Assembly: GCF_001949145.1 (NCBI RefSeq)
Contig: NW_019091356.1
Span: 3,950,934-4,014,933 of the forward strand
Source of the DNA: Acanthaster planci
Taxonomy: Eukaryota
Direction of reading: 5' to 3'
Length of the DNA: 64,000 nucleotides
The notes below the pieces were generated by a model. That model did no database searches. It was not told the DNA's origin and saw only the letters and a list, made by a program, of their open reading frames with translations. The position numbers and the translations under genes are program-made. How positions within the stretch are numbered: the stretch's first letter is position 1; the number at the start of each line of letters is the position of its first letter. Of the stretch, positions 35,380 through 64,000 are shown piece after piece.

Positions 35380-38300
35380 ATGTTTACACGAGAAAAGTCC
35401 GTGAGGAATAGCAGGGAGCAGTGCGTGGACGGGGGTGCGCTGGGGGCAGAGGGTCGTGTGGCCCCGTCATTCTTGAGGACGGTGCACGCCTGTGTATGTT
35501 GGAGGCTGGCTGTGTCATTGGGATTATGGCACTGCCTGTTGTTGGGTGTAGTCCAGCCCTTTAATCTGGATACAAGTGCCCCTGTGTCCTACGAAGGACC
35601 CACTGACAGCTACTTCGGATATTCTGTTCTCTTGCACGAGAACTCGGCAGGGAAATCGTGAGTATTTTGTCATGTTTTGTGCTTCGATGGAGTCATTGTC
35701 TTGTATTTGTTGACCTACACTGTCGTACTGTTACTGTACTTTGGCCACTCATTCCTGATTGAGGTTGAGATGATATCTCAACCTCAATCGGAGTTACAAT
35801 ATAATATTACTACCGCTCTACATGTACGTCTACGTGTGAGTTGCTGGTAGGTTTGAATAGAGCACAGCTCCTAGATCAATTTCTTCTACCATTGCAGTCG
35901 CTGCTGTCACAATGACTACTTCTGATCATATTCGTAGCCATGAAATTAACTTAACCTTTTCTTTTCATAGTCCATCTTCAACAATCACTCTATAATTGTT
36001 TAGAGCTACAATGATTTGTTGTTTCTTATAGTAATATGTATGTATGTTTTGTGTAAGGGCATGCCTAACACAGGGTTTGCTTTTAAGGTGTTGCCACCTC
36101 TTCTGGCATATATATGCCTTTTAGACTTGTCTTTTTATTATTATTTCTGCCACGGGAGGAAATAAATGTGTTTGTGATACCTCCTTGGTAATGCTTAGCC
36201 TAATGGCTGTTCTAGATTTCCAGCGTCAGATTTCATGGTTGTCAACAGGGGTAGGTCAGTTTGTAGATTTATTACAACAAAGTTTGGGAAAGAGTTCCAT
36301 ACATAGGACGTGACATAATACCCTGTGCACAAACCCTGTGAGATTGGTCAGAAAATTTCTAAGTGAATCCTTCGATATTTTCCCAGCAAAATTCGACTTT
36401 TTAGGGCAGGTTATCACCTTCTGATGGCTTATAAATCATTGCAAGGGAAACTCAGTGATGTCCGTGCATGAAACTCTTACCGATGTGCTTGGGAAAGTTT
36501 TGAGTATGATGCACGTACATGTAGGCCCACTGCAGGTCTTTACAAGAATGTAGTTCTGTTTAGACATTAGGATTGAAGTTTTCTTAAAAAACAACAATAA
36601 TGATGATTTCCTGGTTGTGTTAAATATCTTTTGAAAAACCAGATTTTGAAAAAGGTACAAATTTTTCAAATACATACACTGTATGGTATCTGGTGCACTT
36701 GTAGAATTTACATGTACAGTGTGCACTAGAATCACGACGTATATGTTTTCAATGCATCGTATAACGCAGTAACTCTTGTAGAATTAACAATTAGAGAATT
36801 ATTAAAATTGTGTATTTGTAGCATTATCCTTCCCTTTATAATTATCCTCAGTATTGTCTATACTTTTCTTGAAGAAATCATGGAAATGTCCATTGTAAAC
36901 ATGACCTACACTTTTCACTTGTGTCTTTTGGGCTGTCTACAGTGCTTCCATATCCATTACTCAAACACCCCCCACCCCACATGACAGTCTGACGAGCCCT
37001 GGTCCACTCAGTCAAGAGGAAGAGTGCCTCTGACAGGAATTACTCAGTTCAGTGATTCAGACCCGACTTTGCCTACTGTAGGTCGTCGGCTATAAATATC
37101 GGCACGCGGAGTCACTTCCTAATGACTTTACTCCCAAGTGTAGCATGCGTGCATTTATGGACGAGTCCTAAAGTTCACTGTGTTTTGTGCAAACTATGGA
37201 AAATGTTTGCTGAGGGAAGAAAGTAGAAATTACAAATGCCAGAAAACTGTCCAAATATGTGTTTGTGATGCATAAGGGCACACTGTCTTTGGTGTCCGAC
37301 AGCAATCAGTTGATGCACCATATCAACAGCACAGTACATGTATACAGCCGAGCGCTAAATTTAGATAGTCAGTACTTAAAAAGTTACTTCCTGTTAGGAT
37401 TGGTTTCCTTACCCAACGTTTGTGTAGGAGAAGTTGATCCAGCTAGTTTTAAGTGTCTAATTCTGTGTCTAGTCATTTTAAATGCTTCTAATGTACCCTC
37501 ACTCCTCTGAAGGTTTGTTTGAAACAATTTTGTAAACAATCAATTGCTGATAACACTTATAGTGTGCCTAATGGATTAATTTCAGCTCTGGGGTGTTTAC
37601 ATGGACATCTGAATGGTTGTTAAGGCATCCATGCGCGTATAACTGGACACAAAGTTACCGTTGGGGGAGAAATATCCCTGTGCTGTTTTGGAAAATTTGC
37701 CTAATCCATCTTGGCATCGCATAATTTCAGCAGGGCTTTCTTGTAAACTTGCTTTAACCCGAGTTGATGCTTACAGTTACCGTTCACATAGAAAGCGAGA
37801 CTTCCTGTTGCCAAATTTAACAGGGTTCTGAATTGCAAACAAGCAGAAAAGAGTTTTGCTTGGTTTCTCAACCTTGTGAATGTAATATTTGCAAGAGATT
37901 TCATGAATGATATCTCCTTTCCCGCTCTCCTTTCTTTAAGGGTGTTAGCCGGGGCCCCCACGGCAAACTCAGTATACCAGCGATTGTTGCGAAGGCCAGG
38001 AGCATTATATCAATGCGGACTCTCCTCACAACGTATTGGAATACGATGTCAGCAGGTTAAATTAGATGACAAAGGTAAGACAGGATACCGTGCTAGAAAC
38101 AAAGCATTTTTTCCATGTGGCCTGCAGTGTCATTTGTTTGAGGTTTTTGAATTTACCTTGAATGCATTCCTGACAAGAACAAATAAACGAGAGGTACATA
38201 CCGTCTGGCTTCGGCCAGGCAAGCACTGACTGAAAGTATATCTTATGTTTTTCTCTGCTTCCAAAACTTCAAATGTGCAAATATTGTTGTGAACCCCATT

Positions 38301-41300
38301 CCTAAAGTCTCGACGTACTTTGTCACTCACTTGCTTGGTTATATTTAAGTGTTCTTATGCACTGTATAATTTGTACAACTGAATTTTCCACTTCTAAATG
38401 TGTGCAATTCAGTGTGTTATGAAATGTTAGGCTGTAATCAATTTATGCATTTCTTATTTTGGACAATTGATTTTCCATCTTCAGGAAATGAACGCAGTGT
38501 GCCCGGCTCTAGACCGCGCTTCCTTGATGCCAAAGACAACCAGTGGTTAGGGGTGTCACTAACTCGTCAAAACATTGGAACAACGGGGAGAGTCACCGTG
38601 AGTAGATAATGTCTGACTTACCTGAGCTGCAAAACCGCTGCAGAGTATATGCTGAAATTAGGCCCTATTGTGAGACTGGACAGAGAAAAGGCATCGTACA
38701 ATATTGCTCCAGATTGCTTGGACATAGAATTGAATAACACGATGGCAATGCAAGCTCTTGTTGATGAGCACATAAATTTCCTTAATAACATTTGAGAAGT
38801 GGCCCAGCTATGTTTCCCAGATTTCTTCCTTCCTAAATGTCCCTCATAAGCCCTCATCAGCTATAACTTGTAATCCTTAGTTGATAGAATGTTAATCCTG
38901 CAGAAATGATGCTGCTGCCTGTAGGCTCTACGTTCAGGACCATTTCTTCAAAAGTCAAAGCCCATGCGAAGTCGAAAATTTGAAATACAGTGTTACCTGC
39001 ATGTAATATAAATAGGAGCATCTTATGAGGAATACCAGGCTCCGTCAGAAATGATGCGAAAGCCAGCTGAAAGCAACTCAGAGAAAGATTACTGATTGCG
39101 TTTGCACATGCTGTCGGGCCCATCTGGGATATGAAAGCCATAGGGCTTTGAAGTGGTGAAAGCCGATGCTTGTTCAAGTTCTGTAATTGGGAGGGATATA
39201 AGTCAGCCAAAGTGCTGATGAGAATTCTGGAAGCAATACCTCAAAGGTTATCGGTACCGGGCATTAGTTTTGTCTTGGTTGTGGGGTTCATACTGATAAA
39301 AATGGGCCTCAGCCTTGACAAGCTTCCTCTTCCAGATGGCCACCTTATTAAAAAAAAATCAGTCAAATTCAGGCTTGAGCAACATGTGTAGCCCCCATTA
39401 GATACAGTAGTAAAATTCCATTCAGCAGTTGGTGTTACTCCAGCCAGATAACTTGTTAGACAGGATTGGCCTTGACAATGGTGCTAATCCTGCTCAGGTA
39501 CACAATTCAGGTCAGGGGTCAATCAAGTTTTGTTCACCCTCAAATGTGGGATTGTTCATAAGCTGAGTATTTTGTCAAATATGACAAACTGAAGCCCGAG
39601 TCGTGATATGACTGATTCAGACCCGAATTCGCTCTGCACTGAACCATACTTATCCCTCTCCTGCATTGACACCTTACTTTTAACTTCTGATCCCATGACC
39701 TTTAACCCTGAGATGAGTCATGTTACTCACATCCACATGCTCCCCCTCCCTTCCACCCCTCTCCTTGTTCGGGTCCTCTCCTTGTTCGGGTCCTCTCCTT
39801 GTTCGGGTCCTCTCCTGCATGTTCTCACCTTACCCCCTCCCAGGTGTGTGGCCACAGGTGGTCTAATGACTATTATGCAGACGCCATCTTGCCTAACGGT
39901 GTCTGCTACTCCATCAACGCCATGTTTGACTTTACCAGCGTGGTCAAGGCCCGGCCGTGTCTGAACGGTAAGTGGCTGGCAGGACAGAGTGATGCCTGCA
40001 CGGGTTGACAGAGTGCCCACTAAAAGAAAAATCATGTAACATTAATTTTGCAGCATTTAGAAATGCTGACACTTCTGCTGGCTGAGAATGTCATTGCAAT
40101 TTTTTCTTAACTTGCTAATGGTTCCTTGCACCCACCTGCTAACAGATTGACCAAACTACATGTACTGTCCCCACTGTAATTGTTACCTCACTAATCAGCA
40201 TTGCATTTTGTCTCTAACTTCAACCCATTACACACGTGCTTCCCTCCATTATTTCTACATTGGACCATTTTCTGTTCTATTCACTGTACCCTCTGATAGC
40301 CTGCTACATCTTTTGTGGGCTTACCTAAACAGTTTATGCTAATGTTTTTGAAAAACCTCCTATGTGTCCCTTCTGATATTTACATACCGGTATGTTGAAC
40401 CACTGAACATTGTTAACACAGAAAGTTATTTTACGACAGTATTAGAAACAGATATGGATATCGCATTCATAGCCAGTGTTTTAGTGGAGACAATTACCAG
40501 AACAGTCACAAGACCAATCATAAGACCAGTCACAAGACCAGTCACAAGAACAGTAACAAGACCAGTCACAAGACCAGTCACAAGACCAGTCACAAGACCA
40601 ATCACAAGACCAGTCACAAGACCAGTCACAAGACCAGTCACNNNNNNNNNNNNNNNNNNNNNNNNNNNNNNNNNNNNNNNNNNNNNNNNNNNNNNNNNNN
40701 NNNNNNNNNNNNNNNNNNNNNNNNNNNNNNNNNNNNNNNNNNNNNNNNNNNNNNNNNNNNNNNNNNNNNNNNNNNNNNNNNNNNNNNNNNNNNNNNNNNN
40801 NNNNNNNNNNNNNNNNNNNNNNNNNNNNNNNNNNNNNNNNNNNNNNNNNNNNNNNNNNNNNNNNNNNNNNNNNNNNNNNNNNNNNNNNNNNNNNNNNNNN
40901 NNNNNNNNNNNNNNNNNNNNNNNNNNNNNNNNNNNNNNNNNNNAGACCAGTCACAAGACCAGTCACAAGTCCAGTCACTAGTAACAGGGAAAACAGTGAC
41001 AAAGGAATGGCTTTGTTGAAGTTCATTTTAATAGCTTGCGAGTTGAATTTGTGCTGTAATGAGGAGCTCTGCTTGATTTTTCATTTGCATTATGTTTACT
41101 CTCTGCCGGGTCCCTTCCCTTCCCTTCCCTGCTGTCTTTTCTTTTGTCTTGGTTATTATTGGGGGCTCCTACTTGATAGACCTGCGCTCATCGATGGGCC
41201 AATGCGTACTTTGAGAGTATCGCCGAGGTGGTGATGCCCAATGGCGTGTGCTTCACCATGGACAGCGACTTGCAAATTCTCAACAAGAGCATTCCGTGTA

Positions 41301-44300
41301 TCCATGGTAAGTTGTCCTCGGTCCCTCAGCCCCTGACCCCGACCCCTGACCCTTAACCCCCAAGGCACTACAGTTTTCATTTTGCAAACTCTCACTGCAG
41401 GCCAGCTTTTGCCACTGCTCTGTGTTGAGTTTCATCTGCTTCTCTGTTTAGTTTTGAAATGGCGTCAGTATAATTTGCTTGTATGGCACTGTTTTGTGCA
41501 TGTCTGTGCACAGGTACCCAGCTCATGCAATAGTTATAACTCTTCAGGTAAACTTGTAGAGAAAAGACCAATTTTTTAGACAATACCAGTTATCGTCAGG
41601 GTATGCCATATTATATTTTATCGCAGTTTCGATCTCTCCACCGCTACATTTTGTTTAAACAACACTCTTATGTGGTAGACTTGCCCCTTTGTGCTGCTCT
41701 CTGACTGGTATTCATATAATAAGGTCAGGTGTGAAATTCCAGTGGAGAGGTCACCCCTGCACCCCCTAAGGAGACAGTGGGTCTCCTGGGAGGCCACAGT
41801 GCGTCTCCTGGGAGGCCACAGTGCGTCTCCTGGGAGGCCACAGTGGGTCTCCTGGGAGGCCACAGTGGGTCTCCTGGGAGGCCACAGTGGGTCTCCTGGG
41901 ATGCCACAGTGNNNNNNNNNNNNNNNNNNNNNNNNNNNNNNNNNNNNNNNNNNNNNNNNNNNNNNNNNNNNNNNNNNNNNNNNNNNNNNNNNNNNNNNNN
42001 NNNNNNNNNNNNNNNNNNNNNNNNNNNNNNNNNNNNNNNNNNNNNNNNNNNNNNNNNNNNNNNNNNNNNNNNNNNNNNNNNNNNNNNNNNNNNNNNNNNN
42101 NNNNNNNNNNNNNNNNNNNNNNNNNNNNNNNNNNNNNNNNNNNNNNNNNNNNNNNNNNNNNNNNNNNNNNNNNNNNNNNNNNNNNNNNNNNNNNNNNNNN
42201 NNNNNNNNNNNNNNNNNNNNNNNNNNNNNNNNNNNNNNNNNNNNNNNNNNNNNNNNNNNNNNNNNNNNNNNNNNNNNGCTGTAGGCTGACGTACATGTTC
42301 CATCTCCAGTTAGTATCTTCTTCATAAAAAGACAAGAGTTTGTCTCCATTTGTTCTTTTTTTGGGGGGGGGACTTGTCTACATTCTTTGACACCCTCCAA
42401 TTTTTTTTTCCAATCCATACGGAGACTTGTGAGTGAAAACTTGTAGCTGAGCTCGTCATGGCAGCTTTGGCTTCTGCTCCCAAGCTTTGAGATTTTTTTC
42501 CGCCTGATTTTGACAGATTCAGGTCATTTTGTGCGTGTTCATCACATCCTGTACTTATGGTTCCAAGCTTAAGTTTTTTATTGCTCCATTTGGTTTGTGC
42601 ATTAAACATGGTACGAATGGTTCAGCAATTTGTTTTCTGCTAGCGTGCAACTTAGTGCTGTTTTCCATATGTAACAGTGTTGTGAAAATGTTCAATAGAG
42701 CACTTTCTGCAGATGGAGAATAAACAGATCTCTCTTTGTTTTTTCTGATGTAACCAAGGCCCTTACACTATTACTCACGTTTTGCCTTTTGATGAATTTG
42801 TTACTTTTACATGTAATTTAAAGTCCAGCTCAAAAGGCTTTTAGCAGTACAAACTTTGTACAGGAGTCATCTTTGAAAGGTTTGACCAGGTACATGTGCA
42901 TTTCAGTCCGCTGTTGAGATCTAGTGTGTTCACGTAGGTTGGTTTGTTGCTTTCAAGAAACAAACCTTATTCTTCAGTTGTGGAGGGATTTTTTGTGTGT
43001 GGTGTATTAGTTCATCTAGGTTGGAGCGATTCATGGACTGACTTTCCGATTTCTTGCTTGATTGTTCATTGAGTGACTTGGTAATTCAGTGGGAAAGGAC
43101 AAGACTTGCAAAGCTCTTAAAACTGATAGCCTACACTGCACATGTATAAATTGATGCATAACTGTGTCCCGCTAAGTCTGTATGCCAGTTTAAAATGTGC
43201 GAGCCTGTTCCTTTTGTGTGTCAGTGAATTGAATTGATTGTAGTTTCAAAGGTACGAGTACACAGCGGAGGTGACTGTTACCTCTGTTGATCGAAGCATT
43301 GGCACCTCGGCATTGGACCTGTGCCAATGTGTATCCTAGGGGTACCGGGAGCGGTGGGGACGAAGGGGCTTTGTGTCCTGGGCAAAGGTGCCGGAAGTTT
43401 TCTCCTGCATCTGTGTTTCCCGGATGGATGCCTGTGAAGATTTTTTATTACTAAATCATGCCAGCCCGTCAGTGTTGACTTCATTCAGATTTGCAAAGAG
43501 GCTGCTTTCATGCACTGGGAAAAAGAAAATTGAAAAGTAAGAAAGGAGAAAGGGGAAATAATTGGAAGAATTAAAAAAGAGAGATGAAAGTGTATGGAAA
43601 TTACCAATTTGCGTGAAAAAACCTCAAAATTGATATTCGCCTACTGTACTGTTAATTTTATCTTGTAAGGGGATGAGTGCTTTGCCCACCGAGGGAAATT
43701 CTCCCACCCCAGAAAAGATTCAAATGGTTTACCCCTCCCCCTCCAAAAAATAATCCTGATGAGGTCTGCCATGGTTCAAAACCCTGTTATCTCAGATGCC
43801 TTTTGTTTCTAAGAGGTTGCTATTGCTTGAAAAAAGTACGACAGGAATATCGTGAACCCAACCCACATCTGACACTGACTTGTAACCGCTTGCCAAGTGA
43901 ACAAACTTTATAGCTTTCCTGTCTAATCTCAGGAAAAAAACACCAACTCACCTGTGTTTACATACTGAAGCATTTTTCCAACATACCAACCCATCACCGT
44001 AGAAAAGGTGTGGGATGTTGTTGATCCATGTGTATATAATTATTGAATAATAATCCCTGGAATATTCGTCTGCAATCCCCTGAAGGCAGAAAGGTTGTGA
44101 GACATGGGCCAACGGTGAAGTGACAGGTGTGTACCCACACTCGAGTGTGAAGTCTCCCAGGTTTTGGGGTTGTGGCCCCCCATCCTTTCAGTGGTGAGGG
44201 GCAAAGTACGAGGGTTGTAAAAACGCTCTCCCTGTCACTCAATGCTGACTTCTTCTTTGTCAAGGGGAAATGGAGCACTTGTACTGGAATTAACTGCTCT

Positions 44301-50300: not shown

Positions 50301-53300
50301 ATGGCAAATAGATAACGCAATTTGAATAAAGGCAAAAGAATTTTGTTATTTAAAACCACATACATGTAGGATTGTCTGGAACTTGATATCAGATAATAAG
50401 ACCCTTTCTTGATAACTAAACTTACTGTTTGATCAACTGGACTTTTACAAATGTGGCGAGTGTTTGAATCCAGGACTGATCCCCAATGTTGTCATTTAGT
50501 AACTTTTCACAATCTATTTAGGAGTGCTGGTCATTTCAGTGGTGAGTAATTGTGATGTTGCCTGGTTTTACTCTGAATTACGGAAACACATTCAACTGGG
50601 GACGGTCTTTTCCTTGTCTCGCTGTGTGTCACATGTCATTTATTTCTCACTCCTGATTCATGTTGGTGGCATTCAGGGGATGGAAGGGATGGGACAGCAT
50701 CCTTGGTTGAGGTTTTGCTACTCCTGTGGGGAAATAGAGATTCATTCCCCAACCTCAGTGGCGTCAGGGTTTAAAAAGGAAAGATGGGCTTAATAGGGAA
50801 AAATGGCGGATCAGTTGGTCTGAGCTACAGGCTGTGGTTTGATTGAGGGTGGCCTTGATAAATTTTGTACTCTGTGCCGCTGAAATTGTTCTGTGCTGCT
50901 TGAAGCTGTTGTCTTTGGTAACTCTGGAAGGGGATCCTTCTCCCTCCTCGTGGTCATCATTTCTACAATTTCACTTTAAAATATTCTTTCACTTCTATTC
51001 TAAATCCTTACGTACCTTGGCGCGGTAGAAAGACCTTGTGCATATTATGTAACAGCTGTGTGCTCATCCATTCTTTTTTTTGAGCGAGTTTCATTTGATT
51101 AAAGATCTTGCTTCCATTTTTCAATCGTTTGTTTTCAGAACGCGCTTTCATCTCTCCGTTCCCTTGTTTAATACCGCTTCCTCTTTCTTGTTTCCTTAAA
51201 CATTTTTTGCTGGAAACTGCATCCCTCACCTTCACGATGCAGTTTCTGACTGATGTTTCCTGTGTGGTGCATTTTCTTGTCTTTGGCAGAAATCCAAATT
51301 AAGTCCGATGCCAACGGCAGAGGCATCGCTTGGCACGGATGGTGCCAGGCTGGTTTCAGCGCCGAGTACACCGCAGACGGAGAAACCCTGATGGTAGGAG
51401 CAGTGGGATCCCTCGCTTGGCGAGGTAGGTTTGAGTTTTGACTCAGAGGAAGAATTCATGCCAACAGCACATTTTGGCCCACTTACATTGAAAGTGCGCA
51501 CCCACGTTATTCTGCACTGCGAAATACGCAAAGTGACCTCAAGCTTGTATCCATCACCGTATCTGCCTTGAGCATAAGCACCCCCTCATGGGTTTGAGTA
51601 GAGGCATGCTTGTTGGCAGTGTTCACTTTGTTGATAGTGATGTGACCGTAAGATGTGCATTTAATAGTCGTTCGTGAACCAGCGCAATTGAGTTCCGACT
51701 AAAGGAGCCTCTGTTGATGGGTAATTCCAGAAATTAGGGGTCCATGTTTTTTCATATCCCTGTCACATCTTACATGTGATTTTGTGAGTTCAGAACACAT
51801 TTTCTAATTTCCAAGATGATAAATTAATGCAAATTACCTGCCAGACAAATAATAATAGTTTGAAGTCAATTCCGGTGATATTTCCATATCAAATAATAAA
51901 GGTCAGATATAATTTCTGGAATGACCCGGCTAAGAAATTGCACCATCTCTTGGTCCAACTTCAGGCATGTAGGGTTTGGTTATTGCTGTTGAAGAGCTTG
52001 GAGCTTGACAGCTAATTTTGGTTTTGGGGGTGGGGGAGGGGACCAATTACCTCAGAGATAAAATTGAGTGCAACGTGATTCAGGAGTTCCCTTTTATATT
52101 AGGCACACCTTGAGGGTTTGGCATTTGGCTTAAGGTGAGGTCAGAAGAAGGCATGCTTCCTTTGTTGGCGAAGTTTCAGAGAGTGACACACCAGCCATGA
52201 TTTGCCAAAAAAACAAAGAAAGAGAAAAAAGAAAAGATCACCAGAAAACCTTGAGGTTGTGTGGCTGGCTGAAATAAAACAATGACTCCTCTTTCATCTA
52301 CAAGTATTTGTCATGCACTTCTGACTGTAACACCAAACTTGGCATTTTCCACAAACCAATAAATGACACAACAATCTCCCTTGCATTGCCTGTCATTTGA
52401 GTAGGATCTCATTTTCTCTTAAAATCTTTGTTTTGTAGGAAGTGTTGTGTCTATTGATAACACAAACGCTATGAGGATGTCTGATGTGACTACTTGGTAC
52501 CCGACTGGGGAGGAGGATGAAAGTTACATAGGTATGATGTAAGATAGGGAAAGAGGTTGAGAGTTGTAGATGGGTATGATGAAAGAATATGTACGTGTAT
52601 GCCACATGGACTTAAGGAGTACAATGGTGTATGCGAGCTCTTGTTTGTTAACCCTAACAGTCTCGAATCCTCCAATTTCACTATGATTTTACATACACCC
52701 TAGGGGGTTAGGAATCTATGCTTTCTAAAAATTGCAAATAGTACCTTTTCCCCCAAATGTGTCTGATTGAGCTTTCGTTTCCATTTTCTCTTAAAAACTT
52801 CCCCAAATTTCATATTTTGGGTGAAAATTCGTATTGCAGCTTTAGACTTGAATGTTTACTCGAACCTTTCTCACGAGTGACTTTTAAATGCGATGGTCTG
52901 GGTACATGTGCTATTTGCTGCTGTTTTTTGGCGTATATGTGTGCCTTACAGTTTCTGAAGAGAGTCACAGAAGTTGTTTTGTTGCCAAATTTTTTACCAG
53001 CTCAGCCCAAGAGAAGTGCAGTAAACCCGGTTTTTGTCTGCTTATCCTGATAAGGTCAAATACCTTCTACATGTACATTTAAGCGACGTGTTGCTAATCG
53101 CAAAGACAGGAAACATTCTCACGATTCCACCCAGCCCTGGTTGGGGGGGGGGAGTGACTGTATAAGCACAGGCAGGATATAGGAGGCAGCCAGATAGTCA
53201 ACTCCTCTTAGGTACTTGGAAATCTGTGCTTGGCGATAAGAAACAAACTGAAGACCAGTGTTCAGGATAGAAAAAATGCAATCTGATTATTGTTCACTTA

Positions 53301-56300
53301 AAAGGATGCAACATTCCATCCGATCTCAGCTTACAGTTCTTCGAGCACGGACCTCTATTTTTGTCTTGATTTGCCCACAATTGTTGACACTCCTGGTTAA
53401 TATCAAGTTTTACTCTTGTATAAATAGATCTTTTCTTTCTTTCGTAAGCAACAGTCGCACAAAAGTAATGATGCCCGTCAATTTCCAGAAGGGATGGCCT
53501 TAATAAAACTTTTGTACAAATTTGTTGGATATTATTCTTTTTCTTTGGTCTAGGTTATGCTGTAACGTCGGGTAACTTTGTGTCGAAGTCAACAACCCAA
53601 GGTGCCGCGGGGGCTCCCAGAGCTTATCAGAAGGGCAAGGTGTATATCTATGATCTACAGGACTTTACACTTCTGTCGCAGGTGGTCGGCGAAATGGTAA
53701 ATCTCTGATTAGACATGCACATAGTTGGAGCTTTGATGCAAAATTGCATGTACCTGCAGCTGTGATAGCTGTTGCTAGAATGTATCATGTGGCCAATCTT
53801 CCTGCCTGAGTTACTGTCTCATCTGGCAGAGTCACTTAGGAGTGGCTGAAACTGGTTTTGAGTTAAAACGAACCACACAGTCAGCTGCCCTACCCATGAT
53901 AGCTTCAGTGTCATACTGGCCAGAGTTGCCAAGTAAAGTAGCATGAATCACAGACAGGCTGTCAGCAGTGTGAAACAAAAAGGATACACATTCCAAAGCC
54001 CCAATAGAGGGTTTGCATTACTGCCATCTTGCAGGCCAGTGCTTTTGGAGTTTTCCCTGTGGAACAAAAGAACTGCCCTGCAAGATGTAGTGTCAAGGTT
54101 CTTGTGGTCATGGAGAGAGGTGACATCCTGGAATCATGTTGTCGGAAAGAAAAGTTCATGAATGATGTAACGGAAAACTTATGTAAATCAAGATCATGCA
54201 TGGGTTATTTTTGATGGGCTGCTTTGAGATAAAGAACTTTTTTATAAATACTACTGATGACACCACATTTGCTTGTTGAAGGGTTCCCACGGCCCGGAAA
54301 AATCATGAAAAAGTTATGGAAATTGTGTTCGTTTTCCAGGCCTGGAAAAGACGTTGAACTTTGTCAAAAAGACTAAAGTCATGGAACTTCTCAAACACTG
54401 TGTGATTTCTATCATCAGAAAAAGTGCACAAAATGTGTGATTTTATTTTCTAATTTGAAAGTCTGAATAGTCCAAGAAACTGCATTATTGCGTCATGTAC
54501 CAGTATTTTCTTAATTTGGTCATTTAAAAGTCATGGAATTGTCCTTTAGGTGCAGGAATCCTGTTATTGGCAGAGCATAGGATATTTCAACAATTCAGGA
54601 TTTTGATAGACAAATTTGACATGCACTGTCATTGTCCAGCTGCCCACCTTCAAACCACCTCAGTTTGCAATTCAGTAAAGCACCTTCCACAATTCTTTTG
54701 ATGCATTCATGAATGGTTTTGTTAAAATTAAATTTCTTTTCCTAATAGAGTTCTCAGATCTCGGTTTTTAAGCACACTAGTTGGAGCCAGTTTGCATCTG
54801 GATCACAGCTTTGAATCTTTACTGATTAGCATTGCAGCTGGTGCAGAACATTTCTTCCATCACGTGTCTCCGTAGAATATGGACATGTTTCTGTCAAAAT
54901 AACATGAAGAATAAGCTCTTGAAATTAATGGCCTTTCCTGAAGTAGTTTATAAGTCTTGACTCAATCACTTTAGTGAAAGCCTCTTTTCGTGTATCTGGG
55001 TTCCTAATTTTGAGGTCTATGTTCCTCTAATGTACTTTACCGTTGGCACACAATGTGCCATTGATTTCCCAGCACCAGCCTTGGCGGTATCCAGACTTTC
55101 AAGCACTTTTCGTTAACCGATCAGAGGCTGGTGATTTATGCACATGCTCGACTGAGATGCCGAGATAGGAATCATGTGGCCTGCTAGCAATATGTTGTCA
55201 CTGCCTTGTAAATTTGAAAATTACTCTGTGAGACTTGGATCCCATCATTTTGCCTGGAGTGGGATCTGAACCTGTGATCTCTTGGACCCTGTACCGGTGC
55301 TCCACCGACGGAGCCTCCTAGCCCCATGTTGCTTGTCATCCTGATTTGTCCCTGTTTTTATCCACGAGCTGGTTATCTCCCTTGGTTGAACATCGCTCTG
55401 GTATTACACAGGTTCTAGGTTCGAATCCTGCTTCAATCAATTTCTCTTTCCGATGTCCATTCCCCACCATGCTTTGATTAGTCGATCCCGTCTGTCGTTT
55501 CAGATGGGTACCTATTTTGGTGCAGCTGTGAGAGGGATGGATCTAAACAATGATGGTTTGACTGACCTTCTTGTAGGAGCACCGCTCTACTCTGTAACGC
55601 AGGATGAAGGCAGAGTGTACATATACATTAACGATGGTAATGTAAGTATGGGGCTCTACATTATCTAAAGTTTTTTGTTGACGCCTTGCCAATTTCGACA
55701 AAAAAAATAACAGTGGTTACATTTCCTGTGATGGTGTATACATTCAACTGTGATATTTTTAGGAAAATTGAAATTCAATGCATTTTAAATTTTGGAAAGC
55801 AGGGAAAATACCTGGAAAATCCAAATATTGCCCATGAGCCAAAAGTTATGAAAGATTATAATTTCCTAGTGTGAAAGCCACAAATTCAGGCAGGGTTTTT
55901 CCTCAAAAAATCACTTAACTTTTCTTTGAATTATTTAAAATCACAGCAAGATTAGATTGAAAAATTCAGTCTTCCCCAAATTTTTCTTGATTTTTTTCTG
56001 TGAAAAAAGGATTGAACAAGAAATATTGAATTGGACCAATGGAAGAACTAAAAATAAAAAAAATCTTTGAATCGTTGCAGGCCATCATGCGAAAGTTGCC
56101 CGACCTACTGTCAGGCTCCAATGCTGCGAACGCCAGGTTTGGGTCTGCCATTGCTGACTGCGGCGATCTAAACAGAGATGGCTTCAACGGTGAGATCATG
56201 TCAGGTTTTAATTGGCTCGGCAGTTGTCTGGATTGTTGCACTGACTACCTAGACAAAGTTTGTCATGAGTTGAAGTTGGGTGGAAGGTTTTCACAGGTTG

Positions 56301-59300
56301 ATTTTTTTTTTCATGTTGTTGTGGTGGAGGGGTTAAGAAATTGGGTTTCCAGCCATTGGCCCTTGGGTTTGGGAGAGGGCACTTGGATATACAATATAAA
56401 TAGTATTCGTTCTCCTAGAGTTAGGGTGCATATGCCTATTGATTTGGCGTAATGATATCATGTAGAGTACTGCCAAACAAATGATATTGAGATTTCTGTG
56501 TTTCTTTTTTTTTTTATTTTCCTTCTTGAGGGTGGCAATTTCCCTGCCGTAGCCCATAGACTTCAAATCTGGTGTCCTAAGTCAGAATCCTCATTATGTG
56601 TTACAGATGTTGTAGTCGGTGCACCCTTTGAAGATGACACCAGCGGTGCAGTGTACATCTATCATGGTGGGGAGATGGGGCTCAAGACCACCTATGCTCA
56701 GGTGTGTGCAGATGTGACCTAGTTTTATAAACTGACCCCTTTCCAGAAATAGCTACATGTAAATAGTGCAGCTTCTTTGACAGAAATGCCAACATTCTTT
56801 CATAGATTGTTGTTGTTTTGCGTGTGATTTACATTGTAAATGCACAGAGAATCCATTAGATTGTTAGAGTTACAATGTAGTAGAATTTTGTGCATTATTT
56901 TGGTTACACTTTAAAAAATTCCGTGTTTCCTCTGTGTCCTTCAGAAGCATTAATCTAAGTACTTTTCTTTTTGACACCTGACCTGACCTTACAGAGGCTG
57001 TCTGGGCATTCCTTCATCCCACACCTCAAATCGTTTGGCAGTGCGATATCGGGCGGGGTAGACATGGATGGCAACAGCTACCCGGATCTGGTAATTGGAG
57101 CCCATCAGAGCAACAAGGCTGTGCTGTACCTGTAAGTGTGTCCGTGATTATTGTATCAAGTCCAGCAATGTACGCTTGATCTTCCAACCGAGTCCGATTT
57201 GTGGTAAGCGGCGAAGGTTGCTTAGCAGAGAAGTATACGCTCAGCACACAATCTGGTTGCCAGTCAAGTTCGGATGCAATGCATTGTTGACATTAACTGG
57301 TTTCCAGCAAATTTGTGATAAGCAAGAACATTGACAAGCTATATTTTTCTGGAACTGCTGATCCAAACAACAAATCCAATCAGCAACCTACCTACTTGGA
57401 CCCTTGTACCTCATTGAAATTGTAAGACGCTCCACTTTTCTTGTTTCACTTCATGTGGACCAGGACCACACGGTGCCGAAGAGCCGAATAGTTTGGCTCT
57501 TTTTGTACCCTTCCGAAACGTTGGGTCAAACCCTGGCACTTTTGCTATCTAGTGACAGCTTAGCTGAGTCCGGTTTTCTTGAAATTCTCATTTTATTTTC
57601 GTTTGATAAAATGCACAGAAGCAGACCGGTCATTAAGATGGAGGCGTCCGTTGTCGTGCAAGGCACACCCATTGATCTCAACCGCACTGCGTGTCTGTTT
57701 CAGGGCCGACCGGTACCCTGTGTTTGGGTTCAACCTTGCTTCATGTATAGTGGCGTAGGTTTACCGAAAAATGTCGGTAAGTCAAACAATTGGAGTCACA
57801 CCTTAATAGAGAATATTCATGATTTCAGATTTCAGTGTATTACTTAATTGGTGCGTGTTTACATGTCTGGTTTTCCACCTCCTCAGCCATAAATTTCACT
57901 CTGGAGGCTGATGGACTCAAGAGACAGACTGGTCTTCCGGGCCGGGTCACTTTTGTTGAGAACGGCATCCGTCGTGGGAGCACCATCTCCCACAACTTAG
58001 AGCTGCGACCGAATCTGCCCACGTGTTTGCCCAGGGAGGCTCATATTGATGTGAGTTCTCAGACATTGTTAACATCAAGAAGATGACGTTGGCATGTTTG
58101 CTCATGTACTGTGGATATCAAACAAGGTCACATTTAAGGAGAGGGCTTGCGTTGACACCATGTGGATGAATCTCTTTTAGAAGAGGTATGGTTCTGATAG
58201 GAACCAGTGAGTGGGTACTCAATGTTTCGAGCAGTGTGCTGTGGTCATCCGCTATCCACATGGTATCTCCACATGCCCTCTCCTTAGACTGTTCTCCACT
58301 GTACAAAGCTTCAGACTTTATAAAGGTCGAATTTCTTCAAGCCAAGATTCTGGGCCTACAGTGATACAATAACAACTTCGTTTGTTGTTTCCTCACAAAA
58401 CTGTTACTGTCAACTCTAAACCTCACCAAGCATTAAGCACTTGTTAGCCAGCCAAGATGCCATTTGTATCATACTGACCCGTAGCTGGTGTCCCGATGCG
58501 CGGATGCTTTTGCCTGTGAATTTTGCCAGTAGCCAGAGATAATTGGAGAGTGCTGAGGCAAGCAACAAATTCCACTTAGCAACAAAAGTCGTCGGAGGAC
58601 CAGTCAGCAACCAAACAAACAGCTTCGCTCACTTGTCCGCAACATTTTCTTGCTAAGCCAAACTTAGCTGCTTGTGTTTTTATATTAAAACATAAAATCA
58701 TTTTCAACATTTTCTCCCCTGTTTTCTAGGTCAACATGAAAGACTACCTCAGCTCTCTGCCTTTCCGTTTGACCTTTGACATCAGGACAGCAGAAAACTC
58801 AGATGGTCCGCCGATAACTCAGTGTAGTGGATTATGCCCCATTCTTGATATGTATTCGCCCAGTAAGATTGTAGAACAGGTGAGATACGTGAAGATCTAA
58901 ATCCACACGTTATCCCTGTATCGCTGGCAGATATCAAGTCAGAGTACAGAGTACAGTTATTCTCTGCTAGTTTTGGAAATTTGTTTCCTGCCGTGATGAT
59001 CAAAGTTTGAATCCTGCCTGGTGTGTAATGTTTTCAGTTCCTACCTGATTCTAGAGTTTTCCCAAGAATATTTGTTACTTTCCAAAACTCAACAAGTCAT
59101 CTGCTTTCTGCTGAAAGCCATTAAGACTCAGAATACCCGGTCTCTTCACCAGGATACAGAAACCAGAATGTTATTGGAGATGCTCCTCCTGTTGGGATTT
59201 CAAAGCCCTTGTTCGTATTACCATTTTATTTTTGTTCGCTTTCAGGTTGGTTTCATTTTCAACTGTGGTGAGGACTCTATCTGTGAGACGGACCTTCGCT

Positions 59301-62300
59301 TGCAAGCAGCGTTACATCCCGCAAGGTATGACGTACCTGCAACCTTTATTCATAAATTCGGAAGACAGTCTCCCTGTTCAGCAACGTGCAACTTGACCGT
59401 GTAATAACATTTGATGATGCCCGCTGAGAAGCGATAATGCCTGCTGCATAAATCACGAGGTGGCACCTGGATACAAGACAATTCAAAAAAATGGGATCTG
59501 ATTGGTCAAGAGTCTGTAAGCACACGGCTCGCCACACGCGCACCGATTGGACAATTTGCACAAAGAATAAACCATAAAATAGCTGGAAACTGAACGTAAA
59601 ATTCGTGAACAAAATTGCTGAAAAACCATCATATATTGACATCTTTTGACTCTGACTAAAAAAGGTATTTATCAGAGCAGCTCAGGAGACTGAATGCTGA
59701 TAATGCCCTTGGCTTTGGCTCAGGCATTCGCATCCATTCTCCGGAGCCAGTCTTAAGCGCACGTTTAAGACCAGCCAAGCACAGATGGATTCCCCCAGAA
59801 ACACATACCACTAATGAATGAATTCCTGTACAGTAAAAAGACTCTTTAATTTTTGTCAATAAATTTGTGAACTATTTGTTGACTGTTTTGTAGGGGTACG
59901 TCTTACATATCCTACGGCAATGAGGAGAACCTGTTTGTTGATATTACGCTGACCAATCACGGTGAAGAAGCCCATTTGGCGCAGGTCATCATCACACATC
60001 CCGAAGACATCACTTTCGTCCGTGTGGAAAGTAACAGGGTGAGTCAGTACACGTATTTCTCCTCCATGAACAAAGCTTCCCAGAAACAAAGTCCGCTAGA
60101 CTACGTTACTAAACATTAGACTACTTACTTTCACCTTCATTCAGTGTCTGTATTTTAATTGTTTTGTGAGATCAAGTTAAAGTTGTCCTTTTGAGTTACC
60201 TTACTGAACTTTTTTTCCCTCCAATTTTAGAGGAAGGAAACGATAGTGCTCTGCGGGCCAGAAAAAGGAGAAAACATGACAGCCATGGTGGTGTGTGATG
60301 TGGACAACCCTATGAAAGCTTTTTCCAAGGTGAAAGATGAAGTTTGGTTTTTAAATCATCACTCTAAAGCTGTCTCTAAAAACTAATGAAGTATGTTGTA
60401 AGTGGAGGGATGTTTATGGTGTGCAGTACTGAAGTAGCTCCCGGTTCAAATTGTAGAACAATCTCTGATGTTTGTTTTTCACAGAGTTCATTCAGAGTGA
60501 AGCTCTTTATTCCGTCTTTGACGTATGAGACCACCAATGTCCAGATCACGGTAGAGGCCCGAACGACAAGTACGGAGGCCAACAGCACACTGCATGATAA
60601 CAAGAAGGAGATGAGCCTGCCTGTCAAAGTCGAGGGAGACGTCACCATATCTGGGTAGGTGGTGTTTTTTGTTCTTAATTGACTGGATGGTTGGAGGTGC
60701 TGTTCAAAGTCCCAGGCACCGAGTTCTGGATTTTTTTGACATTATGATAGCATTTCTTCGTAGTGAAGTGCTGTGCTGAAGCATTATACAGTGGTGGCTG
60801 CCAGTTTACAACAGAATGTGCACAAAGGCTCTGTTGCAGTTTATTTCCCTTTGTACTCACTTTGATTAGAGTGTACTTGATTAGAGTGTACTTGATTAGA
60901 GTGTGAGGGTTAGTTCATATGTAGGCCAAAACAAAAAGCAAGGCAGAAAGTGATCAGGGCAAACGTTGGCAAACTGCCAAATTCACGGTAACATTTGCTG
61001 TTACCCGACAAGTGTAGTGCTCTTGGTATTCGTGGGACATAAAAATCAAAATTAATTCAGGGCCGTAATGCTAACCCCCAATGTACAGTATTCCTGACTT
61101 GTACAAATTTTGGTGGGTGCCAAATTACATGTAGCAGTCTGTAGAGAACAAGGTTCCAGGGCTAATTATAGAGGTTTCGTCACTCCTGAAAAAAAAAAGA
61201 AGCCAGACTACACTGGAGTGTGAGATGACCCATGTGGCCTCCAGCGTAACACAGGAAGTGATTGACTTCCTTCACGTCTTCCTTTGTCATCTACTTCCGT
61301 TGCTGTCCTGGCTGCGGTTGAAGATTAAAGCCTGAACCCGTTGTTTTCATTGAAAGAATTGTCTTTTTTTACATTTTCTTTTTATAGTAAATGCAATATT
61401 GCAAGATGGTATGATAAAGACATTTGTAAAAAGGGAAATTTGAAAGACTGGTTTAGTCACAATTGTAGTTTTTCTGAATGAAATTTGAAATTACCCTTAA
61501 CACTGCCTCGGGTGTTTTGCTCGGAACTTCTCTAAAACTTTCAAAGAACATCAAGGAGCATGTCAAGTAACAGGCTGGCTGGACAGTCCCAGGTCCATCA
61601 CAGTCGAGCAACATTTATTGGATCATAGATCTGAGAGGATTAAAGGGGAAGATAAAATGAGCCCGAAGGTTGCAATTAGGAATGGAGGGCACTTAAACTT
61701 GTGTCAGGCTATGAGTCAGAACAAAGGAAGTGCAGTGGTTGGATTGATATCATAGACATTGTCAGATTGTTTTGTATTTGTCTGAAATAACAAATGAAAG
61801 TCAGACACATTACAATGGGTGGAAACCAGTTTGATGATAAAGAATTGGTCTATCTTAAAGATGCTATATTGTGGATTCAGTCGAGGTGCCTTTTGACATT
61901 TTTCAAATAGTGCCATCCAGCAACACCAAGGAAGTCCCAGGAGGTGGTAATTGTGCTGTCTTGTCCATGATTGATTAACGGTGGTAGGGGTCCGTTGCAA
62001 TGACCTGACATGAGGTCAGGGGTGACATGTGCATTACGGTGCAATAAGAGTGCCTCTTTAAGGCATTGTTCTGTCTTTTGTTCATGTAATTCGCTGGATA
62101 TGCCAAATGTTAGAAATAACAAGGATTTCTAGTTTGGTCCAGCCTTCACATCCTTGAGGTTTTTGCGGGATTAGAAACAATAGGGCTGGAGGAGGAAGAT
62201 ATCAGTCATCGACCTTGGTTGACCTTGGCTGACCTTGGTTGACCTTGGCTGACCTTGGTTGACCTTGGCTGACCTTTTAACGAAACCCAGTGAATCTTCA

Positions 62301-63923
62301 TCGACATAACTTTGCAATCATGTGGCAGTACATGTGAAATTTTGGGGCTGATGTTAAAGGGGGATTTGGAAAATTGGATGATGGAAATGCATTTTGTGTT
62401 CAAGTTGAAATTTTTCAAGTATGAGAAATAATTTTTTAAATGTAGCAGCTCGTTCTTGAAAAGTTCACTTACTAAATATTGGTAAACCGAAATATCTTCC
62501 AAACATTTTGTTTTCTGGAATTGGTTGGTCCTGAGCCCTCGTTCCTTGCATTTCATTGGATAGAGGTTTTCCACATTATGTAACACAGTGGGAAGGGGCA
62601 TTTCAGGAAGTGTACCATGTTTGTGGAGGCATGTGCCAATGTTGGCAATTTCATGTACTCCAGAATATTGAAAGACTTCAAAGGCGCGCGTGTTTCTGCG
62701 CACATCTGCGTAAATTGAATGCTAGACCGTCAAAAGTCATGTGACTGAAAATCCTGTATCAGTAGTGTCCTTATGTTTTTGGCCATCAGGGTGACCCATC
62801 CGGCTGAAGTCATATTTGGTGAGAAAAAGAGGAAAAATCCAATCAGTGCTGAGAGGACTGGAGCAGTGGATGGGATCGCTGTCAACCTAGTGGCAAACTC
62901 AACAGGGTTGATTCAAAACGGAACCGACGAAGCCAGCATTGGCCCCAAGTTCAAACACATTTATGATGTGAGTGGTAGTTGGCTTTAGTACCTTTTGGAA
63001 ATCCAAGAGAGTGAGATTAAAGATGTTATTGTATTCCTTTCTGTGCATTGCAGTCAAGCTTCATTGCTATCCCTGATCATGATGCCAATAAAACAGTTCC
63101 CATGCACGGCCTAACTTGGTGCCAAGAACTAGTGTAAATGCAGTAGTCTATTTGAGGTATGGCAGACACAAAAGAGGGGGCTATTCAGTTTGGGTGAAAT
63201 CTTTTGTGTTCACTCCAAATTTAATAACCCACTTTAAATAGCGCCCTCTTTTTGTGACTGCCATGCTTCACACTCAATTATGATTACCCCTTTGGTACAG
63301 GTGTCTACATGTGCTACACGATCTCTGTCGATGTTTTGCTGAAGGACGTATGGATTACATTTCTGTTTGAATGCCTCTTGAATTTGACAACATATATATA
63401 TGAAATTTCTGCTGTTTGAAAGAGACCAATGACTTGATTTCCTGCAGGCACGGAACTTGGGCCCCAGCACAATCCCTTACCTGACAACAGTCAACATCAC
63501 CCTTCCTTGGAAGACGAAAGAGGGCGACTGGTTGCTGTACTTCACTCACATTGAGGTGAGGGAGAAGACTTGGGTTGACTTAGGGCACCACTCTATGTTA
63601 GAACCTCTCTTACAATTGCTCGAAATGACGTTTTTCCTGCCACGTTTAGCTTTGCTCTAGAACCGGTCACTACAAGGTTCAAGTGTGATTGGACAAACTT
63701 TCAGAAATGAACAAGTAATGAATCAGGTTGTCATAGCAATGATACATTTCAGGGTGATGGTCGATAACTTCATTGACTTTTATTTTTGTATTTGCAGTTA
63801 GAGGGCACAGGGAGATGTGAATACCAGCACATATTACAACAGCAGCATCAGCAGCTGGAGACGTACCGATCCAGTGAGGTCACCTCCAAGGGGAGCCCCC
63901 TGTCATTTTTTAGCTCGGGAGAG
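35380..63923 (+). CDS. ITGA9: Integrin alpha subunit, alpha-4/alpha-9-like, no alpha-I domain; 3' end lies beyond the window
   Basis: Exons: 35380-35657 (leader, FNLD...DSYFGYSV), 37941-38074, 38485-38597 (DNQWLGVSL), alternative 39844-39967 or 41180-41306, 51290-51424 (CQAGFS), 52439-52531, 53554-53696 (GYAVTSGNF...GAP), 55504-55641 ([15 protein letters not shown]), 56081-56189 (DLNRDGFND), 56607-56701, 56995-57131 (DMDGNSYPD), 57619-57776, 57887-58050, 58730-58879, 59246-59325 ([11 protein letters not shown]), 59894-60038, 60231-60329, 60485-60654, 62790-62967, 63448-63555, 63798-63923. All GT-AG with compatible phases. CGHRW, three cation-binding loops and the blade 4-5 sequence resemble vertebrate alpha-4/alpha-9; the symbol denotes clade resemblance, not tested orthology. 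Confidence 0.93.
36289..36478. mobile_element. MITE, family A (copy 2), integrin alpha intron 1
   Basis: aaagagttccatac...catgaaactctt; internal sequence colinear with 1350-1548. Confidence 0.65.
39759..39816 (+). repeat. 17-bp tandem repeat (about 3.4 copies) in the pyrimidine tract before exon 4A
   Basis: (ctctccttgttcgggtc)x3 + ctctcct. Confidence 0.9.
39844..39967 (+). CDS. Integrin alpha exon 4A (mutually exclusive variant)
   Basis: cccag|GTG...AAC G|gtaagt, 124 nt, phase 0 to 1: [41 protein letters not shown]. Confidence 0.9.
40497..40979. repeat. 12-bp minisatellite between exons 4A and 4B, containing gap 40642-40943
   Basis: Unit ccagtcacaaga on both sides of the N run. Confidence 0.92.
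41180..41306 (+). CDS. Integrin alpha exon 4B (mutually exclusive variant)
   Basis: gatag|ACC...CAT G|gtaagt, 127 nt, phase 0 to 1: [42 protein letters not shown]. Not present in the supplied ORF track. Confidence 0.87.
41775..41911. repeat. 22-bp minisatellite running into gap 41912-42277
   Basis: Unit cagtg(g/c)gtctcctgggaggcca, about 6 visible copies. Confidence 0.92.
44517..44762. mobile_element. Young MITE with 47-bp perfect TIRs
   Basis: ctggggccaatttcatagagctgcttaagcacaaaatttgcttaagc (44517-44563) is the exact reverse complement of 44716-44762. Confidence 0.9.
45447..45639. mobile_element. Degenerate hAT-like MITE (CAG...CTG ends, G-rich and C-rich arms)
   Basis: caggggcgtagcta / tagctcccccactg; a similar right end is seen near 1650-1695. 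Confidence 0.45.
46530..46815 (+). mobile_element. Penelope-like element 3' remnant (pseudogenised GIY-YIG endonuclease C-terminus plus decayed hammerhead motif)
   Basis: [14 protein letters not shown], frameshift, then [15 protein letters not shown]...[19 protein letters not shown], the typical Penelope endonuclease tail; followed by CTGAAGA-stem-GACA at 46782-46811. Confidence 0.75.
51719..51927. mobile_element. MITE, family C (copy 2, internally deleted)
   Basis: Starts gggtaattccagaaattaggggtcca, ends taatttctggaatgaccc; colinear with 28027-28282. Confidence 0.8.
54008..54090. repeat. Short palindromic interspersed repeat, family B (copy 2)
   Basis: gggtttgca...gccatcttgcaggcca...gaactgccctgcaagatg, matching 25411-25517. 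Confidence 0.6.
54280..54563. mobile_element. Degenerate MITE
   Basis: agggttcccac / gcaggaatcctg ends with internal repeated (g)tcatg(g)aa motifs. Confidence 0.35.
55252..55330 (-). mobile_element. tRNA-derived SINE head (degenerate)
   Basis: Minus strand reads ggctccgtcggtggagcacc (A-box-like) ... ggttcagatccc (B-box-like). Confidence 0.55.
55366..55450 (+). mobile_element. tRNA-derived SINE head (degenerate)
   Basis: Decayed A box tatctcccttggttgaaca and perfect B box GGTTCGAATCC at 55418-55428; no clean cloverleaf. Confidence 0.5.
62211..62276. repeat. 10-bp tandem repeat with 20-bp higher-order unit
   Basis: (gaccttggtt gaccttggct)x3 + gacctt. Confidence 0.92.
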
Positions 63924-64000
63924 GTTGGTTAGGTTTCCAGTTTGTTTTTTCTGGTCAAATTTCAAGTTCAGACTTCTTTGTGGTTTCAGAACTAGGCTTA

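Follow-up and report, generated by a model that had tools for sequence, protein, structure and literature searches.

Does a pair of homologous exons in an integrin α gene of the crown-of-thorns starfish Acanthaster planci provide one receptor with two alternative ligand-binding loops? The pair, exons 4A and 4B, lies in a stretch of 64,000 nucleotides (nt), hereafter the window (contig NW_019091356.1, positions 3,950,934 to 4,014,933 of the forward strand, assembly GCF_001949145.1). An earlier sequence-only reading of the window had proposed that the two exons are mutually exclusive versions of propeller blade 2 in an α4/9-like integrin and form an old, selectively maintained splice switch that tunes ligand specificity. 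We found that the exon pair is expressed, that its use varies between samples and that it is conserved across four echinoderm classes.

Exon 4A (39844..39967, plus strand) is 124 nt long and exon 4B (41180..41306, plus strand) 127 nt, both lengths being of the form 3n+1, and each has an AG acceptor, a G|gtaagt donor, a phase of 0 to 1 and no stop codon. Coordinates, peptides, splice sites, phase and stop-free frames were all confirmed on the sequence. The two were matched by tblastn with an E-value of 6e-9 and 37% identity, the next-best place in the window reaching only 0.62, which upholds their proposed homology; the earlier count of about 14 matching residues was too low, as 16 columns are identical. 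All three cysteines are kept in both exons and the N-glycosylation sequon NKS occurs only in 4B, as had been claimed. The exons are adjacent, homologous, equal in phase and similar in length, as tandem-duplicated exons are. RefSeq holds both versions, 4A as isoform X2 and 4B as isoform X1. Upstream lies the constitutive exon 3 (38485..38597, plus strand), which ends in phase 0 and matches XP_022084385.1, and downstream the constitutive exon 5 (51290..51424, plus strand), which starts in phase 1. With either 4A or 4B alone the frame is open through exon 6, whereas with both included a stop codon is reached 92 nt short of the 4B end, and with both skipped one is reached within exon 5; these stop positions bear out the claim that both or neither shifts the frame. 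The 4A-4B intron measures 1212 nt and includes a 12-nt tandem repeat (40487..40981) with an assembly gap of 302 N (40642-40943), and a second N gap (41912-42277) lies 3' of 4B. No third copy of the exon was found by tblastn in the sequenced letters of the window, and both gaps, which sit beside tandem repeats, might hide one.

To follow the splicing of the pair, RNA reads were mapped from six of 24 listed runs, all of raw RNA, 18-24% of each run being read. An initial mapping at 92% likeness was crowded by reads from repeats and showed, of the four joints expected, only 4A-5 (1 and 2 reads in runs X12 and X15, the other three joints not being among the rows shown). Junction counts were taken from a mapping at 97% likeness on a narrower stretch, with a listing threshold of 3 reads from 2 starts. 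The joints 3-4A (38597/39844), 3-4B (38597/41180), 4A-5 (39967/51290) and 4B-5 (41306/51290) were covered by 3, 10, 2 and 11 reads in run X16 (4B share 0.81), by 18, 3, 31 and 2 in X19 (0.09), by 9, 4, 9 and 5 in X20 (0.33) and by 5, 0, 1 and 0 in X17 (0.00). All four joints were present in X16, X19 and X20, and X17 had the 4A joints only. Runs X16 and X19, both from study P8, differed in their 4B share (Fisher test over distinct read starts, p = 1e-6; p = 0.008 and p = 7e-5 when each junction side is taken alone). The share did not differ between X19 and X17 or between X20 and X17. Neither a 4A-4B joint nor a 3-5 joint skipping both exons was listed in the four runs at the threshold of 3 reads. 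All four predicted junctions were thus supported, and 4A and 4B are spliced as alternatives in a ratio that varies between runs. Separately, the introns between 38741 and 51088 showed low, patchy read depth in X16 and X19, which fits unspliced pre-mRNA or some carry-over of DNA. Tandem repeats (12-nt and 22-nt units beside the N gaps) and dispersed repeats, at 40487-40981, 41747 to beyond 41900, 44500-47200, 51700-51920 and 52640-52715, gathered many partly matching reads.

The proposed mutual exclusivity agrees with the absence of 4A-4B and 3-5 joints from these runs, but it is probably not absolute at the level of splicing, as RefSeq contains frameshifted 4A+4B models. The N-termini of Apostichopus isoforms X3 and X4 fit the upstream exons plus 4A in the +1 frame over 80/80 and 61/61 residues and then continue into B; in the control for this fit the maximum from 10,000 shuffles was 6. 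The models of Patiria, both Asterias species and Amphiura and the GenBank model of Holothuria start with M-TCAHRW, a start that fits an ATG supplied by the last bases of 4A (an N, H or D codon followed by G). Acanthaster X3 starts instead at the next Met inside 4B because 4A in the window ends in ACG. The short isoforms P0005, P0008, P0012, P0013, P0132, P0027 and P0152 (RefSeq) and P0143 (GenBank) are probably frameshifted 4A+4B transcripts annotated by their longest downstream frame. Such both-in transcripts, with their early stop, probably exist at a low level. Early-stop transcripts are the usual substrate of nonsense-mediated decay, which likely removes 4A+4B transcripts. Since inclusion of both exons or of neither shifts the frame, and such transcripts are likely cleared in this way, the protein output would be exclusive despite leaky splicing.

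We then asked how old the pair is. Models of otherwise matching proteins carried A and B in eight species from four echinoderm classes: four sea stars, the brittle star Amphiura, the sea cucumber Apostichopus and the urchins S. purpuratus (older models) and L. variegatus. In S. purpuratus and L. variegatus a third version, C, exists besides A and B, so that the proposal of two versions holds for Acanthaster and not for these urchins, which have three. A single version is present among the newer models of the S. purpuratus cluster and of the L. pictus cluster. In the Holothuria cluster, A was present in six Logan proteins and B in the GenBank model; Diadema setosum had B, and D. antillarum and L. 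pictus had C. Models of ten species contained intact B frames. Crinoid models (three of Anneissia, one of Antedon) were of A type only, and three hemichordate models had one form each, 4A-like. A search of crinoid fragments for a B-type exon gave 4 matches among 169 candidates, none of them informative, and no crinoid-type B exon was recognised among 20 matches in a search of representatives, which returned one B-type and one A-type genomic fragment, both like the Amphiura exons.

In an exon tree of 28 rows and 44 columns, from which we omitted A. amurensis B, whose sequence matches A. rubens B exactly, along with repeated models, echinoderm paralogues and vertebrates, the B exons (9/9) formed a single clade with support of 100/99 and the C exons one weaker group (81/84). 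All nine A exons encode 41 residues, the length also seen in the rows from crinoids, hemichordates, annelids and spiders. Insertions lengthen the first loop by 3 residues in B and by 4 in C, and sea-star B has lost 2 residues further on. The sequon NK[S/T] was found in 9/9 B and 0/9 A exons, and NRT in one of four C exons. Identity was 0.69 within A, 0.60 within B and 0.50 between A and B. A gene tree built without exon 4 grouped the 11 echinoderm genes as orthologues (Shimodaira-Hasegawa-like approximate likelihood ratio test, SH-aLRT, 93), with crinoids branching first. The simplest reading of these comparisons is that the exon duplicated once, on the stem leading to the four classes other than crinoids, an event we would place some 480 million years back or still earlier. 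After this tandem duplication of exon 4, 4A would have retained the ancestral 41-residue form, 4B would have acquired its 3-residue loop insertion and N-glycan sequon, and urchins would have gained a third copy, which may derive from A or from B. Crinoids may have lost B, or it may merely be unannotated there. Collectively, the protein models support the proposal of an old, maintained exon pair.

The exon chain of the gene in the window, 21 exons, corresponds to A. planci XP_022084385.1, exactly over 959 of 1118 residues, and the gene, annotated as integrin alpha-9-like, runs on the plus strand beyond the end of the window. A profile built from both exons retrieved three clusters, all of sea-star 'integrin alpha-9-like' proteins. 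Pfam detected no VWA domain beside the FG-GAP repeats and the three Ig-like leg domains, an alignment showed GFFRR, of the GFFxR type that accompanies the transmembrane helix, and a fold search with the protein model returned integrin α subunits. Together with the structure model itself, these results identify an integrin α subunit that has no α-I domain. Among the best 120 of 795 matches, the named vertebrate ones were all α4 or α9, and the best PDB sequence match was human α4 (E-value 4.5e-126, compared to 1.9e-109 for α5). In the gene tree built without exon 4, from which Arg-Gly-Asp-binding and laminin-binding outgroups were absent, the echinoderm genes grouped with ITGA4/9 relative to the protostome rows (support 96). 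The α4/9-like assignment of the sequence-only reading is supported by these matches and agrees with the tree.

Exon 4 aligned to residues ~110-152 of human α4 (3v4p), in blade 2. The B form as modelled by AlphaFold (mean predicted local distance difference test, pLDDT, 78) has a strand at 174-178, a hairpin loop at 182-195, a strand at 198-202 and a further strand at 208-212, which bears N210 of the NKS sequon. Numbered by the repeat pattern, these elements would be β2, the β2-β3 loop, β3 and β4 of blade 2. The 42-residue B form is predicted to have the longer loop, with its insertion at the tip between strands 174-178 and 198-202, and this β2-β3 loop accounts for the change in length and for most class-specific residues. 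In the available text of PMC3255974, the pocket loops of α4 include β2-β3 and β4-β1 of blade W2, exchange of the W2 β2-β3 loop with that of α5 is reported, from 1997 work of Irie et al., to have blocked binding of VCAM-1 and fibronectin IIICS, and the same α-propeller loops lie on the face that also binds the β-I domain. [quoted passage not shown] We infer that receptors containing 4A and 4B would differ in ligand binding.

In a paralogous α4/9-like group of echinoderm proteins (P0028, P0029, P0030, P0031, P0034, P0035 and P0041), the same loop of blade 2 carries insertions that are long and variable, suggesting a general site of diversification. Isoforms X1 and X2 of the Apostichopus paralogue P0031/P0158 have different cytoplasmic tails, much as vertebrate α3, α6 and α7 have A and B tails.

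We consider it reasonably likely that the locus is a splice switch in which one copy of exon 4 is spliced in at a time, in proportions that depend on the sample, and the blade-2 loop is swapped to give two receptors likely differing in ligand preference or affinity. Several points weigh against this. The tip of the predicted loop (186-191) has a pLDDT below 50, and the model covers the B form only. Junction counts were low, given the fraction of each run read, and joints with fewer than 3 reads were unlisted. Tissue, stage and individual are coded for the runs, so the differences in ratio could reflect genotype or treatment and not cell type; because the tissues are coded, we do not claim 'tissue-specific' use of 4A and 4B. 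The isoforms of other species are automated models at the protein level only, and A was not resolved in the 44-column exon tree (3 changes). As for RNA pairing of the docking-selector kind, six of seven flanks paired no better than 8 shuffles and no convincing competing duplex was found; the flank 41330-41380 reached -47.5 against -43.3 for the best shuffle, with a partner near 45438, where repeat-type reads pile up.

A switch that is functional and tunes something other than ligand binding, such as the β partner, activation, folding or trafficking through the B N-glycan, or escape from pathogen binding, is the less likely account that survives best. The sequon is the most consistent B-only feature (9/9) and sits on the predicted outer strand 208-212, away from the loop tip. 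The blade-2 loops share their face with β-I domain binding in the accessible part of PMC3255974, and the consulted part of PMC12564407 describes ITGA6 X1 and X1X2 as similar in ligand specificity and different in β pairing. This account fits poorly, however, with a length change and most class-specific residues located in the very loop whose exchange in α4 is reported above to have blocked ligand binding, and with the precedent of ITGA7, a ligand switch (PMC8860092, PMC12564407). It is improbable that 4A and 4B are near-equivalent, each being kept as the default exon of some cell types with no gain in receptor diversity. Ratios that vary between runs would be expected of such exons, and sea-star B does evolve faster (long branches), A-B identity in Acanthaster being 0.36; yet the B insertion and sequon are conserved in four classes, identity within each type (A 0.69, B 0.60) exceeds that between them (0.50), and urchins gained and kept a third form. 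That 4B is a decaying or poison-type regulatory copy, or the pair an artefact of assembling two haplotypes, is hardly credible and largely refuted by the RNA joints and the exon tree: an N gap does separate the exons and double-inclusion models recur in RefSeq, but 37% identity is far too diverged for alleles, 4B-only junctions made up to 81% of reads (X16) and B frames are intact in the models of ten species.

How might a ligand-tuning switch of this kind be controlled? The two exons are separated by no fewer than 910 sequenced nt, which rules out steric clash between splice sites, and the GT-AG borders of all sites rule out a mixture of U2 and U12 splice-site classes. The AG-free zones 5' of 4A (39718..39843, plus strand, 126 nt) and 5' of 4B (41067..41179, plus strand, 113 nt) are the longest in the gene, those of the other 19 acceptors spanning 21-62 nt, a pattern noticed post hoc; part of the 4A zone is a short tandem repeat (17 nt, three copies, 39758-39816). 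AG-free zones of 100 nt or more are tied to alternative exons and distant branch points in the available portion of PMC1431707. Splicing factors specific to cell types may act on these two zones. Of 42 exon flanks, three contain the hexamer TGCATG, and two of these sites lie just 5' of 4A (at 39816) and 3' of 4B (41497..41502, plus strand, 191 nt beyond the exon). We take it to be an RBFOX-type motif, and by the RBFOX position rule both candidate sites would presumably favour 4B, although this is a lead only.

Vertebrate integrins offer the closest comparison, with ITGA7 X1/X2 as the model for how such a switch would work. The X1/X2 slot of α6 and α7 presumably follows the blade-3 'WxG', near exon 6 here (52439..52531, plus strand), of which a single copy was seen; exon 5 maps weakly (E-value 0.69) to α6 154-191. 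In the excerpts available, ITGA7 X1 and X2 are mutually exclusive, developmentally regulated and alter laminin preference (PMC8860092, PMC12564407). Both systems place alternative exons within the α β-propeller, but X1/X2 belong to the laminin-binding clade and to a slot further downstream, whereas the echinoderm exon encodes part of blade 2 in an α4/9-like gene; the echinoderm switch is for these reasons not a member of the X1/X2 system. Double inclusion also differs, since ITGA6 X1X2 is a protein isoform, as far as the partial source goes, and echinoderm 4A+4B is frameshifted. Human α4 and α9 (PDB 3v4p, 9p95), like the echinoderm gene, have no α-I domain, and genomic fragments of α4/α9 type showed the same exon borders. 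None of three isoform pairs of fish α4/α9 differed at the exon 4 slot, literature searches found no vertebrate α4/α9 switch at this slot, and we know of none in ITGA4 or ITGA9.

Splicing tunes integrin ligand binding in Drosophila through αPS2 exon 8 and βPS exons 4A/4B. There, αPS2 has a cassette exon in a PS2-type α subunit and βPS a duplicated exon in a β subunit, and the slots differ from the one described here. In the abalone Haliotis gigantea, an 'ITGA8' gene has a mutually exclusive exon 5 according to the available part of PMC13170236. It is likewise an invertebrate integrin α with a mutually exclusive propeller exon, in a gene annotated as α8-like. The isoform-2 oligonucleotides given there translate to PCRREVD, YCQSGFSATV and WYWQGQ, which points to a slot just downstream of the exon 4 slot; as the primer spans the border, it could still be the same slot. 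FGFR IIIb and IIIc are mutually exclusive exons, themselves tandem duplicates, which exchange part of the receptor's ligand-binding surface and are conserved across chordates (PMC5703972, from the part accessible, where vertebrate Itga6 is the only integrin mentioned). That protein is unrelated, and function is proven in FGFR and inferred for the echinoderm exons. No published description of the echinoderm switch was found in a search that did not reach older echinoderm integrin papers in subscription journals. The pair is a known kind of receptor switch at a new position, and it is already implicit in automated annotations.

Exon 1 (35380..35657, plus strand; ATG, predicted signal helix and start of blade 1), exon 2 (37941..38074, plus strand; 2-3 joint read in X16 and X19) and exons 7-21 (53554..63925, plus strand; remaining propeller, thigh and calf domains) were placed by the match to XP_022084385.1, the last group also by Pfam. 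Head-to-head with the α gene lies an integrin β gene (9592-18062, minus strand), with PSI-like, β-I (PF00362, E-value 1e-10), EGF-like, transmembrane and NPIY tail exons; its first exon was not located. Its product is a candidate partner of the α subunit. The final coding portion of an EXOG-like nuclease gene (PF01223, PF18026) occupies 436-972 and 954-1331 on the plus strand. Its tail peptide WRQLEEWHLEPDD...PNRTDSI occurs twice in tandem in different frames, which may reflect a local duplication or an assembly artefact.

Tentatively, since we hold it about as open to doubt as to belief, non-crinoid echinoderms may have evolved an integrin ligand switch of their own: a cassette of two to three duplicated exons that would exchange the blade-2 specificity loop and the N-glycan of one α4/9 integrin, cell type by cell type. 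Splicing would then give a diversity that vertebrates got by duplicating ITGA4/ITGA9, and with ITGA7 X1/X2 and the abalone exon this would make a third independent exon duplication, altering another loop on the same ligand face. RefSeq contains several short 'X3/X4' proteins of the gene that are probably misread double-inclusion transcripts. For echinoderm work on development, immunity and regeneration, the pair offers an isoform marker that is invisible at the level of gene expression. The locus holds a long-conserved natural loop swap at a position marked by mutagenesis as critical for α4 ligand binding, and ten-odd species offer matched variants of types A, B and C, a resource on how integrin specificity is encoded.

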